From the NCBI GenBank assembly GCA_963711835.1, contig CAVQFQ010000022.1:1-64000 (forward strand): a DNA stretch of 64,000 bases, given 5' to 3'. The notes under the pieces were generated by a model. It was given only the letters and a program-made list of their open reading frames with translations. It had not been told where the DNA came from and made no database searches. The DNA is from an uncultured delta proteobacterium. Lineage in GTDB: Bacteria > Desulfobacterota > RBG-13-43-22. The position numbers were made by a program, and so were the translations under genes. Shown here in pieces: positions 20,946 through 24,780 of the stretch (position 1 is the stretch's first letter; every line of letters starts with the position of its first letter).

Positions 20946-21341
20946 ATGATTCAGAAACTGATTAAAAAGAGAAATCAAAAAGGGTTCACCCTGGTGGAAC
21001 TCTTAATCGTCATCGCCATTATCGGCATCCTGGCCGCCATCGCCATCCCGCAGTTCAACCAGTATCGTAACCGCGCCCATATGGCTGCCACCCGTTCTGA
21101 TGCTAAAAACGCATATACAGCCGTCCAGGCTTGGATTTCAGACAACGTTGGAACGGCTATACCAGGGGATACGAGTACCAGTGGCTCAGCCTATACGACT
21201 TATACCTCCGCCAGAACCAGCCCGGGAGTTACCGTAACGATTGCAGCGACAACCGGAGATGTGACTGCGACGAATACAGCAGTCACCGGGTCGTATATAG
21301 TTGCCGGAACAGGCCTCATAACGGATACCTTAGCTCCATAG
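20946..21341 (+). CDS. pilA: Type IVa major pilin
   Basis: [26 protein letters not shown] class III signal with E5. Confidence 0.93.
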
Positions 21342-21462: not shown

Positions 21463-21627
21463 TTTCAAGTCCTTGGTAAAAATCTGGGTGGCTGTCCGAG
21501 GAAGAAAGGTCCGATTCAGGAATTGGGAGTTCTATTATTTTTTGACACCGGGAAATTATTCAAGGTAAGGTGGTCGGCAAAACGGATTGATGAGAGGAAT
21601 CTTTATCGGTGGATTATTCTGAAGGAC

Positions 21628-21703
21628 TGGTGGGCCGTGGCAGGATCGAACTGCCGACCTACTGATTAAGAGTCAGTTGCTCTACCTGTTGAGCTAACGG
21701 CCC
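21628..21703 (-). tRNA. tRNA-Lys(CTT), copy 1
   Basis: GGGCCGTTAGCTCAACAGGTAGAGCAACTGACT-CTT-AATCAGTAGGTCGGCAGTTCGATCCTGCCACGGCCCACCA. Confidence 0.97.
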
Positions 21704-21758
21704 CCCTGAAAGTATGCCTTCCATATCACACTTTATCCCAAGTGACAAGGGAAAATAG

Positions 21759-21946
21759 TTATTCTTGGGCTGTTTCCTTTAAATCCTTGAGACGATCAAA
21801 GATTCTTTCCATTTTGGTTTTAGGTAGGCCGCCGAAAGCCAGTTCCAGATCCTCATGACTAAAGTGATCCGATAAAAAGCTTCAAACAGCCATACGATTC
21901 TCCCAGCAATTGACAAAATTCCGGCAGGGCAGGGGGGATTGGGCTT
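21759..21946 (-). pseudogene. Orphan 3' fragment of the 24225-24503 gene, with a nonsense codon
   Basis: Aligns to 24225-24412; Trp TGG has become TGA; most other differences are synonymous. Confidence 0.85.
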
Positions 21947-22092: not shown

Positions 22093-22332
22093 TTAATTTC
22101 CGGGGGTTTTTACCTGCCGAAATATCCCTCCAAGTGCACGCAAGGCTTTATTAACTGCCGACGCATTTGGAAAAAGACGGACTACATCGGGTTCGAGAAC
22201 CACAACATTCGTCCCTTGTGCGTAACGAGCTGCCGTACCTCCTCTCTCAGCCTTTGAGAAATCATACTCACTACGCATAGTATCCCGATCCGGATTCAAC
22301 CGTGTGGTGTTTTTAGTTTTGGCCTTCTTCAT
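22093..22332 (-). CDS. BrnA-like type II antitoxin
   Basis: MRSEYDFS ... NVVVLEPDV..FP...AVNKALRAL pattern; preceded by a BrnT-like tail. Confidence 0.7.
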   Translation of the reverse strand: MKKAKTKNTTRLNPDRDTMRSEYDFSKAERGGTAARYAQGTNVVVLEPDVVRLFPNASAVNKALRALGGIFRQVKTPGN

Positions 22333-22365
22333 AGGTCCTCCTTTCCTGCCGGGTTGCTACAAATA

Positions 22366-22662
22366 CTAAAAGCTAATATCAAACGGAGGAAAAGGTTCCG
22401 TTCTAATTTTCTGATAGTAATCTTCTTGACCAACGGTACAATCAATCATGCCCTTGAAAATAATTTTTCTCACCCTTAATTGCCGGGCAATCTTTCCTTC
22501 AATATTCGGACTTAAATCATTTCTTTGGTGGGAAACCTTGGTAAGGATCGGGGGAAGATTTGGTAATTGTAATTCATACCAACGATGATCTTCACTATGA
22601 TGTAAGGCTGGCTGAAAGCCAAATTTATTCTGTAATTTAGACTCAACCTCCTTAGGTTTCAA
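22366..22662 (-). CDS. HicA-like putative mRNA interferase toxin
   Basis: KFGF...DHRWY...TKVSH....I..IARQL pattern of the HicA dsRBD-like fold; 98 aa. Confidence 0.6.
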   Translation of the reverse strand: MKPKEVESKLQNKFGFQPALHHSEDHRWYELQLPNLPPILTKVSHQRNDLSPNIEGKIARQLRVRKIIFKGMIDCTVGQEDYYQKIRTEPFPPFDISF

Positions 22663-22676
22663 GATTATCTCAATCT

Positions 22677-23069
22677 TTATTGATTAACTGGCCGAAAGTA
22701 TTCTTGGATTTTTTTAAGAATTGTTGGGGAGAGGCCGCCTTCTTCACGGGACTTTGCTTCGATGAGTTGATAATAATCAATTAGTGCTGTAGTATAATCT
22801 CTTATTGCCTCTGAACTTGTTTTTCCTTCTCCATAAACTAAAAATAGATTATCACTTAGTATATAATATCCATCATCGTCCTGTTCGAGAGTAACCAATA
22901 ATGGCGCGAACACAGCCCATCCCTTTTGTATTATCCAAAGATCAAACTGTAAAGGGGAGCATGAGTAGTCAAAGGTTGGCTTGCTGTATTGTTTGCTATC
23001 AAATGAAAGGTCCCCAAAAAAATACTCATTGCTCGCCGTTCCTTCAGCCGCAACCGCTAAATTGTTCAT
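22677..23069 (-). CDS. HicB-like protein (partial RNase H-fold domain, no obvious DNA-binding domain)
   Basis: LEQDDDGYYI...VYGEGKTSSEAIRDY matches the HicB GxTxxEA motif. Confidence 0.6.
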   Translation of the reverse strand: MNNLAVAAEGTASNEYFFGDLSFDSKQYSKPTFDYSCSPLQFDLWIIQKGWAVFAPLLVTLEQDDDGYYILSDNLFLVYGEGKTSSEAIRDYTTALIDYYQLIEAKSREEGGLSPTILKKIQEYFRPVNQ

Positions 23070-23389
23070 TAATTTTCCTCTTTCCCCTCAACTTTAGAAA
23101 GGAATTTTTCGAGATTCTTTTGCATAGTATTAATAAATACTTTCATACGGTTGGGTGTCACAATAATTTGTGAGAAACACTCGGCTCTTATCGAATCAAT
23201 TTTTTCTAAGGTGGATTTAATTTCATCAGGAAGTCCAAGGATTATTGGTTGCTTTACTTCGAAAAAGCTTATAATAAACTCCTCGTCAGTATGTTGGACT
23301 ACCATGTTTGTAGCGTATTGTCTTTTTAGATCTTCGGGAATGTGCCACTCAATGGGGATTTTGATGTCCTCTTTTTTTTTCACTTCCAT
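23069..23389 (-). CDS. DUF3467-like protein
   Basis: YATNMVVQHTDEEFIISF ... IIVTP..MK.F...MQ.NLEKF; AAGGAG RBS; TAATG overlap with the next gene. Confidence 0.7.
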   Translation of the reverse strand: MEVKKKEDIKIPIEWHIPEDLKRQYATNMVVQHTDEEFIISFFEVKQPIILGLPDEIKSTLEKIDSIRAECFSQIIVTPNRMKVFINTMQKNLEKFLSKVEGKEEN

Positions 23390-23507
23390 AACAATTTCTC
23401 CCTTCGATTAGGGGACGTTACTTTTTGAATAATTTATATTTTAACTAAGCAATATTAGGGCGAATTTATAAAATGGAAGAAAATTTATCATATTTAAATA
23501 AGTTAAA

Positions 23508-23826
23508 TGACCCCCGGCAAAGCCGGGGGCTTATCTTTGTTAGCCCCCCAAGGGGGCCGTTTCATGAGTCCCATGAAGGGGACATACTTCATATTCAGAC
23601 TTGGGAAGGTGGAGACGCCCATCTTTCTTTGTTTGTTCAGGAGTATATTTCTTAACGATTTTTATTCCTGACCAATGGGCATTTCCAGAATATTTAAACT
23701 CTTAAAAGATTTTTGGTTTAATCTCCGAGTGCAAAATTCAGCGATTTATATTGGTGGTTTTTACTATTCTATTGCCTCACACGGTCAAACCTTTCGGAGT
23801 CCCCCGGCAAAGCCGGGGGTTTACCT
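23508..23826 (-). mobile_element. IS200/IS605-family non-autonomous relic
   Basis: Identical CCCCCGGC-AAA-GCCGGGGG hairpins at 23511-23529 and 23801-23819; interior retains a TnpA-like IVKKYTPEQTKKD fragment. Confidence 0.75.
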
Positions 23827-24093
23827 GTTAGAAATTACTATAGTATATCAAATTTTATGTCAATGACTATTTCATGGATTACTCGAATCGCAGGGGGCAG
23901 TTAAATTGCGAATAACTTCGTCAGAGTCCTTGTGCTTAATTGCCAAAACGATCTTGCTTCGAGTTAATTAAAAGTTTCCCCCATTTTTTGAGCCGTTCTT
24001 TATCTTGAGTTTATAAAAGGGTTAGAAACGAAAAACACCAAAAAAATAAAAGCCAACCTAAGTTGGCCATTTATTTGTTTTTATTTATAAATC

Positions 24094-24169
24094 TGGTGGG
24101 CCGTGCCAGGATCGAACTGGCGACCTACTGATTAAGAGTCAGTTGCTCTACCTGTTGAGCTAACGGCCC
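24094..24169 (-). tRNA. tRNA-Lys(CTT), copy 2
   Basis: Identical to copy 1 except for a flipped T-stem pair (GCCAG/CTGGC). Confidence 0.97.
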
Positions 24170-24224
24170 CCCTGAAAGAAAGCCTTCCATACCTTACTTT
24201 TACTGGGGTGAAAAGAAAAAATAG

Positions 24225-24503
24225 TTATTCTTGGGCTGTTTCCTTTAATTCCTTGAGGCGGTCAAAAATTCTTTCAAGCTTGGTTTTGGGTAACCCACCG
24301 AAAGCCAGTTCCAGATCCTCATGACTAAATTGATCCGATAAAAAAGTCCAAACAGCCATACGATTCTCCCAGCAATTGACAAAATTCCGGCAGGGCAGGG
24401 GGGATTGGGCTTGACGGCAGTAGTGGAAGGTCATCATCATCCCCAGGTGAGGGCAATAGATTTCAAGTGGGTCGTATTGTTCAGTCATAATCTTTTTAGC
24501 CAC
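24225..24503 (-). CDS. Small Cys-rich hypothetical protein
   Basis: YCPHLG..YCRQ..PCRN..NCW; synonymous divergence from the duplicate supports coding. Confidence 0.8.
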   Translation of the reverse strand: MAKKIMTEQYDPLEIYCPHLGMMMTFHYCRQAQSPLPCRNFVNCWENRMAVWTFLSDQFSHEDLELAFGGLPKTKLERIFDRLKELKETAQE

Positions 24504-24770
24504 AGACCAAATCAGCCCGGCAAAGCCGCAACCAATGTAGCGAGTTCCCCTTTCCCAGTCCTCCTGGTGGCAAAAGATGCATTTAAAGCCCTTTTAGCCA
24601 CCGACCCACACAGACAAAAGCGGATCCCGCCGGCGGGACTGGCACGAGTTAAGATGCTCTTTAAATCCATAGATCTATGGTGATGCCCGGTTTTTCGTGC
24701 CCGATGGGCCTGACGGTTAGGGTGGCGGCAGGTCGCCGCCACCCTGTCCAGTTTTTGTCTGTGGTAGAAA
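24493..24770. repeat. Palindromic element family B (short copy 24493-24575 plus long copy 24592-24770)
   Basis: TTTTAGCCAC(A/C)GACC ... G(G/T)GG(C/T)A termini; internal GCGGATCCCGCC..GGCGGGACTGGC and TGGCGGCAGGTCGCCGCCA modules shared with 30895-31098. Confidence 0.8.
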
Positions 24771-24780
24771 TATCTTCTGG

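Follow-up and report, generated by a model that had tools for sequence, protein, structure and literature searches.

What does a protein of the DUF3467 family contribute when its gene directly precedes what looks like a HicB–HicA toxin–antitoxin (TA) pair? The question is raised by a three-gene cassette within a 64,000-nucleotide stretch of DNA from an uncultured delta proteobacterium (contig CAVQFQ010000022.1), hereafter the window, for which the initial annotation had proposed that DUF3467 may act as a chaperone or sensor for a HicBA pair. The nearest precedent is provided by toxin–antitoxin–chaperone (TAC) systems, in which the antitoxin carries a variable, disordered tail that is bound by a SecB-like protein, itself titrated by phage proteins, as described in the available portions of the reports on M. 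tuberculosis HigBA1-SecB(TA), Methylomonas HicAB-TAC, E. coli HigBAC, MqsRAC and CmdTAC (PMC5105189, 10.1101/2024.02.24.581848, PMC9519451, PMC3581621). In the literature searched, with subscription papers and Table S1 of Gerdes outside its scope, we found no link of DUF3467 to TA systems and no function for the family; PF11950, CV0863 and 2X8N returned nothing relevant, and the supplements of PMC10440598 and PMC13069673 contain no mention of DUF3467 together with TA systems.

A compact cassette in a tRNA-linked islet

The three genes occupy ~1 kb of the minus strand. The DUF3467 gene (23,069–23,389; 106 aa), encoding the candidate helper, comes first, and its stop codon overlaps the start codon of the HicB-like putative antitoxin gene (22,677–23,069; 130 aa) within the sequence TAATG, whereas 14 bp separate the latter from the gene for the HicA-fold putative RNase toxin (22,366–22,662; 98 aa), which has a TTG start and a weak Shine-Dalgarno sequence. 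At 36.8% GC, the cassette lies below the window as a whole (50.9%) and the genome (52.8%), so that both the tight linkage and the AT-richness noted initially are borne out. The AT-rich leader preceding the DUF3467 gene (23,390–23,499, minus strand) contains a GGGAG Shine-Dalgarno-like element and is presumed to include the promoter; a consensus promoter scan listed no site there, and its overall yield was at background level (8 versus 5.8 ± 2.3). PADLOC and NCBIfam scans of the cassette gave no meaningful match.

Relative to the homologous locus L022, the differences at first, second and third codon positions number 16, 14 and 43 in the HicA-fold gene and 26, 17 and 59 in the DUF3467 gene, and this concentration at third positions indicates that the open reading frames of the cassette are real genes. 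The TTG start of the HicA-fold gene is also present in L022 and L023. A contig from an independent run covers 22,525–23,499 with 13 differences, eight synonymous and five non-synonymous, a number too small to interpret, and a contig from an RNA run, which does not imply transcription, covers 22,239–22,647.

The islet recognised in the initial annotation as tRNA-linked comprises 2.2 kb flanked by a pair of 300-nt direct repeats that are 90% identical and that each bear one of the duplicated tRNA-Lys(CTT) units. The left repeat (21,627–21,926) contains tRNA-Lys(CTT) at 21,628–21,703 and a broken 3′ copy of a 92-aa gene, and the right repeat (24,093–24,392) contains the second tRNA-Lys(CTT) at 24,094–24,169 and the 3′ portion of the 92-aa gene, which is intact here (24,225–24,503); the 92-aa gene followed by tRNA-Lys is found in nine of 11 loci of relatives. 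A reciprocal G/C swap between the two tRNA copies, by which the stem pair would be kept, suggests that both are still functional and that the duplicate is old or derives from a related strain. No integrase was present among the open reading frames of the islet. A type IV pilin gene (N-methyl motif) at 20,946–21,341 converges on the left tRNA-Lys copy.

Upstream of the cassette lies a MITE-like non-coding repeat of ~335 bp with terminal hairpins (23,500–23,832), six further copies of which occur in the genome at 96–100% identity. Its two hairpins are identical, and we take them to be IS200/IS605-type ends. The empty site, joining 23,499 to 23,832, is found in contigs of two runs from two other studies, one of these contigs being that which covers 22,525–23,499, and the repeat is a recent insertion outside the system. 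A second multi-copy intergenic repeat, at 24,600–24,780, has many matches of 73–93% across the genome. On the other side of the cassette, a 79-aa open reading frame (22,093–22,332, minus strand) with no Pfam match, presumably BrnA-like, shares 45% identity with a paralogue on contig C6 of the genome, and a short C-terminal remnant that overlaps its start (~22,313–22,375), presumably BrnT-like, was recognised in frame by comparison with the C6 locus. The junction (22,093–22,375) recurs in contigs of other strains. As judged from the sequence, this overlap makes it likely that the cassette cut an older BrnT/BrnA-like pair. The 79-aa frame was ruled out as a fourth component, with no match in the other loci.

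The third gene encodes a HicA-fold protein

The 98-aa protein lies below the Pfam cut-off (HicA_toxin, E = 0.07). Among 119 homologues found, 116 were aligned and used for modelling, and 69 of these match PF07927 at E ≤ 0.1. The resulting model (pLDDT 93.1) consists of a helix, three strands and a helix, followed by two extra C-terminal helices (residues 66–74 and 79–88). Its best five VIA structural matches are all HicA proteins (1whz, Z = 8.2; 5yrz, 6.5; 6g26, 6.5; 4p78, 6.0; 6hpb, 4.1), the first four of which rise above the rows of unrelated proteins (Z ≤ 3.8). His26 is invariant in all 116 homologues and is equated, by position and motif rather than by superposition, with the catalytic histidine of studied HicAs (His23, His24 or His28), the role of which is described in the available text of PMC11594946; the preceding Gly-Ser is Ser-x-Asp here. 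According to the model the protein has the HicA fold and, with a histidine at the catalytic position, the HicA-like label of the initial annotation is upheld; it is likely an RNase that would be toxic.

A HicB-like protein with a variable N-terminal tail

The scores that identify the 130-aa protein as HicB are weak. It falls below the Pfam cut-off (PF12910, E = 0.0013, residues 62–101 only), matches structure 3k6q at E = 0.25, and is aligned by hhalign to two canonical HicBs at E = 0.004 (probability 8%) and E = 0.18, while its nearest named families in the atlas are PF12910, DUF1902 and HicB. The C-terminal part of PF12910 is matched by 29 of 40 homologues at E ≤ 0.1, and a PF15919 search did not include the cassette locus among the matches listed. 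The conserved core, namely the C-terminal ~85 residues with a YGxG motif, resembles HicB-type cores weakly. It is the constant position of the gene before hicA that makes an antitoxin role likely.

The core is preceded by 41 residues (codons 1–41, 22,947–23,069, minus strand), in keeping with the extension of ~45 aa first estimated. This tail, a candidate helper-binding or degradation tag, is Ser/Thr-rich and unconserved, with a mean top-residue frequency of 0.22 compared with 0.50 in the core. Profile scans of the protein and its homologues detected no HTH, RHH or Phd/YefM N-terminal domain, which agrees with the earlier remark that the protein has no recognisable DNA-binding domain.

The antitoxin-first order had been singled out as the reverse of the usual one; the order itself is present, but the available text of Gerdes (10.1101/2023.12.08.570793) describes hicBA lacking a DNA-binding domain as the most frequent of the bicistronic arrangements, and it is therefore not the unusual part of the cassette. 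By the class descriptions in that text, the cassette fits none of the 14 classes of Gerdes. Class 8 shares with it a ~95-aa HicA with two extra C-terminal helices, the hicBA order and the lack of a DNA-binding domain, and the profile of this HicA retrieves the class-8-like loci L011 and L013 with their 353-aa partners (hhalign probability 96%), but the class 8 HicB is described as having 331–356 aa and three domains, compared with 130 aa here. The idea that class 8 HicB is a DUF3467–HicB fusion was rejected, as the long HicB of L011 has no DUF3467 similarity. Classes 2 and 5, as described there, also place the antitoxin first, class 2 without a DNA-binding domain, and it is the C-terminal portion of PF12910 that the core of the HicB-like protein resembles. 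In contrast to the cassette, however, class 2 HicBs are given 63–103 codons, class 5 HicBs an N-terminal Phd/YefM DNA-binding domain, where here the N-terminus is unconserved and the PF12910 match spans residues 62–101 only, and neither class is given a third gene. The main text of Gerdes makes no mention of SecB, a chaperone, or a third or tripartite component.

The DUF3467 protein is small and acidic

The 106-aa protein scores 35.3 bits against PF11950 (gathering cut-off 25), its sole match in a Pfam scan at E ≤ 1, where SecB did not appear, and its first matches in the atlas are all DUF3467. The monomer model (pLDDT 87.8) comprises a three-strand sheet, an inserted helix and a long C-terminal helix, with residues 1–27 devoid of secondary structure. 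Its structural matches to COMM domains (Z = 5.0–5.2), Pur-alpha (Z = 4.7), PC4 (Z = 4.0–4.1) and T5 PC4 (Z = 3.1) are weak, with rmsd of 2.5–4.4 over ~60 residues for the best of them (Z = 4–5.2) and scores at the level of a merely common arrangement. The small sheet and C-terminal helix are common to the model and to COMM, Pur-alpha and PC4 (Whirly-like) domains as described in the accessible part of PMC13392464, whereas DUF3467 lacks an HN domain and its acidic charge is unlike that of Pur and PC4. SecB is absent from the best 50 matches of every fold search with the model, as is 2x8n (CV0863), a sequence match of DUF3467 (E = 0.018), from its best 50 fold matches. PHROGs gave one weak, unexplained virion-protein match (E = 0.002), and the plasmid and phage collections gave none. 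Fused forms were absent from a search covering 297–2000 aa, in which a DUF–HicB fusion of ~240 aa would be missed.

The Pur-alpha and PC4 neighbours, together with a HicB-like protein that has no DNA-binding domain, could point to a PC4/Pur-like nucleic-acid binder that serves as the missing autorepressor or senses phage ssDNA or RNA. We consider such a role unlikely, given that these Z-scores are weak and that COMM domains, which score highest, seem to be devoid of nucleic-acid-binding surfaces according to the portion of PMC13392464 available. In addition, the cassette protein is acidic (net charge −3, pI 5.4), as are the HicBA-linked copies in general (median net charge −6, pI 4.9; one of 35 above pI 8), and this acidity suits peptide binding better than nucleic-acid binding. 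A nucleic-acid binder would also leave the co-variation of the antitoxin tail unexplained, and DUF3467 is found with antitoxins that already have an HTH domain (see below).

The trio is conserved and the tail co-varies with DUF3467

Loci were retrieved with the HicA alignment, so that DUF3467 was not a selection criterion. In 45 metagenome loci, DUF3467 is present in 29, absent from eight and undecidable in four, and in the other four the contig ends too near upstream. Wherever the contig extends far enough upstream, in 41 loci, the HicB-like gene adjoins hicA, and in 29 of the 37 informative loci it is preceded by DUF3467. A GTDB pattern scan gave DUF3467 in three of six loci; HMM matches in the host phylum (n = 13) comprise four with DUF3467, six without and three with no HicB-like match, and those in a second phylum (n = 12) five, three and four, respectively. 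The positive loci in these tallies include L061, where the fragment is cut off, and L146 and L151, where scores are weak. After dereplication across all searches, DUF3467 is present in 32 of 44 loci and absent from 12. The neighbourhood of DUF3467 with HicB and HicA is thus conserved; a lack of such conservation would, according to the initial annotation, have refuted its proposal. Named hosts of the trio include Thermotogota, Chloroflexota and Planctomycetota, and in most loci the DUF3467 stop lies within −4 to +5 nt of the HicB-like start. The flanks of 33 loci contain no shared fourth gene; about six of these loci adjoin restriction, PIN, RES or NYN genes, too few to point to a defence role.

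The analysis of tails started from 77 rows, of which 19 were left out (11 for want of a HicB-like match, four as undecidable, and four as class 8, partial or dubious); the remaining 58 were dereplicated to 44, with the start of L063 set by hand. Across these loci, which include non-independent kin and for which start codons had to be inferred, the tail has a median length of 46 aa where DUF3467 is present (n = 32) and of 30.5 aa where it is absent (n = 12; p = 0.006, or p = 0.036 when DUF-less loci are given the longest possible start). By clade, the difference has p = 0.025 in the remote clade and does not reach significance when the close clade is taken by itself (p = 0.21). Tails beside DUF3467 are richer in Ser+Thr (0.23 versus 0.14, p = 0.0006) and poorer in Asp+Glu (0.07 versus 0.14–0.15), such that the extension is variable, of low complexity and tied to the presence of DUF3467. 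Loci without DUF3467 occur in separate parts of the tree (10 changes, of which at least five are forced) and arose repeatedly, and in nine of 11 hand-picked tree contrasts the tail is shorter without DUF3467 (sign test, p = 0.033).

Repeated independent loss, a tail of unconserved sequence and the housekeeping or secretion contexts of most DUF3467 copies would also fit a small mobile cassette on which DUF3467 is just a passenger, or serves as a translational leader, and the antitoxin tail is a neutral linker. We regard this as quite unlikely, since gene order and coupling persist across HicA homologues that score a mere 23–45 bits on the profile, the TA-linked DUF3467 proteins form their own clade, and DUF3467 occupies this slot beside other families of TA pairs as well.

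Four DUF-less loci (L006, L007, L038 and L048) keep tails of 40–81 aa, which counts against a TAC-like role of DUF3467, and two of these exceptions have another gene abutting upstream, for a ClpP-like protease (L038/L055) or an uncharacterised protein (L048). Cassettes of two genomes (G304 and G305) retain ~40-aa tails without DUF3467, with a stand-alone DUF3467 gene elsewhere in the genome. The ClpP-like, SDH-type protease (PF01972, E = 5e-18; L055, 414–1,607; L038, 1–714) fills the upstream slot before a tail of 81 aa, and the locus is possibly a protease-gated variant of the hicBA pair. By extension, DUF3467 could bind the same tail not to help the antitoxin fold but to set its turnover, as an adaptor for a protease or a shield against one. 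Such a function seems improbable to us, as the protease occurs in one dereplicated locus only and a constitutive degradation adaptor that is made first would be expected to poison its own host unless gated.

DUF3467 is reused beside other toxin–antitoxin pairs

PF11950 is matched in 78 of 301 host-phylum genomes (89 matches, 60 strong and 29 weak). None of the 46 strong matches examined by neighbour translations is directly TA-linked; their neighbours, labelled by eye, are nifU-mfd-like, polyprenyl-synthase-like, hemB-like or type I secretion-like genes. Seven of the 29 weak matches are TA-linked, namely this locus, L015 and the loci L097, L101, L111, L110 and L118 described below. Both the location of most DUF3467 genes away from TA pairs and their dispensability in 12 of 44 loci count against the TAC-like reading. 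In the host genome (89% complete) the TA-linked gene is the sole PF11950 match, and a canonical stand-alone DUF3467 occurs in six of nine sampled genomes of the host family. Elsewhere, divergent DUF3467 genes lie beside Tox-PAAR-like (PF13665) and DUF3540 genes (L117, L121) or beside repeat-rich or secretion-like genes (L080, L083, L089, L092–L094), sometimes in tandem or fused to longer proteins.

Beyond HicBA, L097, L101 and L111 each encode a putative toxin, of which that of L101 alone has a Pfam match (Gp49), an HTH_3 antitoxin with a long C-terminal tail, and DUF3467. A search with the L097 and L111 antitoxins found L160, whose DUF3467 scores 61.7 bits and nests in the HicBA-linked clade (SH-aLRT 96, in a 98-column tree with long branches). 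The antitoxins of these four loci carry C-terminal tails of 47–85 aa, a layout as in TAC, and the tail faces the DUF3467 side in both gene orders, HicBA and toxin–HTH. No SecB was found beside an L097/L111-type pair (four matches in 401 genomes). L161 (2,037–2,318) has the same toxin–HTH pair as L097, L111 and L160 but an unrelated 93-aa third gene, which counts against the TAC-like reading; its product, with no Pfam or PHROG match, is a possible third class of helper. IS1-like transposase genes adjoin L101, L111, L151 and L161, by a PF03400 match for L151 and by resemblance for the others. The third gene of L157, on a Thiothrix plasmid, appears DUF3467-like by eye, matched no profile and was left uncounted.

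L110 and L118 combine DUF3467 with a short antitoxin-like protein and a RelE-like protein (PHROG E = 0.004 for L118). Their antitoxin-like proteins, of ~83–87 aa, have no evident tail, a further point against the TAC-like reading and one that would suit a structural third subunit or co-antitoxin, whereby DUF3467 binds HicA, perhaps at the extra helices, or dimerises HicAB instead of a DNA-binding domain. The two conserved extra helices of the toxin are compatible with such a subunit, as are the obligate dimers that the COMM/PC4-type fold class forms in the sources as available. Yet the same extra helices are present in class 8 systems without DUF3467, and one DUF3467 clade serves unrelated toxins, which leaves this arrangement decidedly unlikely.

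Discussion

The cassette resembles TAC systems in being a three-gene unit whose antitoxin has a variable, low-complexity extension, and whose small third protein is reused across toxin families and has stand-alone relatives in the same genomes (here G301 and G303). It differs in its third gene, DUF3467, for which no match to SecB was obtained, in the helper–antitoxin–toxin order, and in a tail that is N-terminal rather than C-terminal as in the ChAD, although C-terminal tails do occur in the DUF3467-linked HTH loci. ChAD tails are themselves variable and function when grafted N-terminally onto reporters, according to the available part of PMC5105189. As described in the accessible TAC literature, the ChAD of HigA has aromatic anchors and TAC HicBs carry an RHH domain, whereas this HicB-like protein has no such domain and aromatics are no more frequent in its tail than in its core (FWY 0.08 versus 0.11), the latter counting against the TAC-like reading. 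PF02556 has no match in the host genome at its 89% completeness. With neither the SecB family nor a C-terminal tail found in the cassette, it is at most an analogue of TAC and not a member.

The cassette is a genuine and conserved tripartite variant, apparently undescribed in the literature searched, although Table S1 of Gerdes could include some of the loci. The original proposal of DUF3467 as chaperone or sensor gains from the conserved unit, the co-variation of the tail and the reuse of the third gene, and loses from the absence of DUF3467 in 12 of 44 loci and from the missing SecB match. Gene linkage, the HicA fold with its histidine, tail co-variation, the acidity of DUF3467 and its reuse with other pairs lead us to favour tentatively, at a little under an even chance, a TAC-like module in which a non-SecB helper, DUF3467, would stabilise the antitoxin through putative binding to its tail.

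In such a module, the HicA-fold toxin would be masked by the core of the HicB-like antitoxin, and DUF3467, probably dimeric as its modelled COMM/PC4-like fold suggests, would bind the floppy N-terminal tail and keep the antitoxin folded and stable. Made first and coupled in translation to the antitoxin, DUF3467 would be in place to receive the emerging tail. Should it then be occupied by a phage protein or by misfolded proteins, the antitoxin would aggregate or be degraded; the freed HicA would stop translation and cause abortive infection or stasis. Phage defence by the cassette is in this respect an extrapolation from TAC, where a surplus of MqsC is reported to suppress defence.

The wider proposal, that DUF3467 represents a second, SecB-independent class of TA chaperone that also senses phage, has a COMM/PC4-like fold and was recruited repeatedly to HicBA, HigBA-type and RelBE-type pairs, is possible but more doubtful than the module itself. 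The TAC chaperones described so far, in the literature as available, resemble SecB and serve as exchangeable sensors of phage. If the proposal is true, a different small fold as helper would widen the set of defence sensors, the control of some antitoxins without a DNA-binding domain would be explained, and chaperone addiction would have evolved convergently. The 1-kb cassette, which can be tested directly in E. coli, would in that case also offer an easy growth-based assay of DUF3467, a family that is widespread and has no function in the literature searched. The proposal, if true, would moreover give a first function to a family whose members also stand alone and beside secretion genes.
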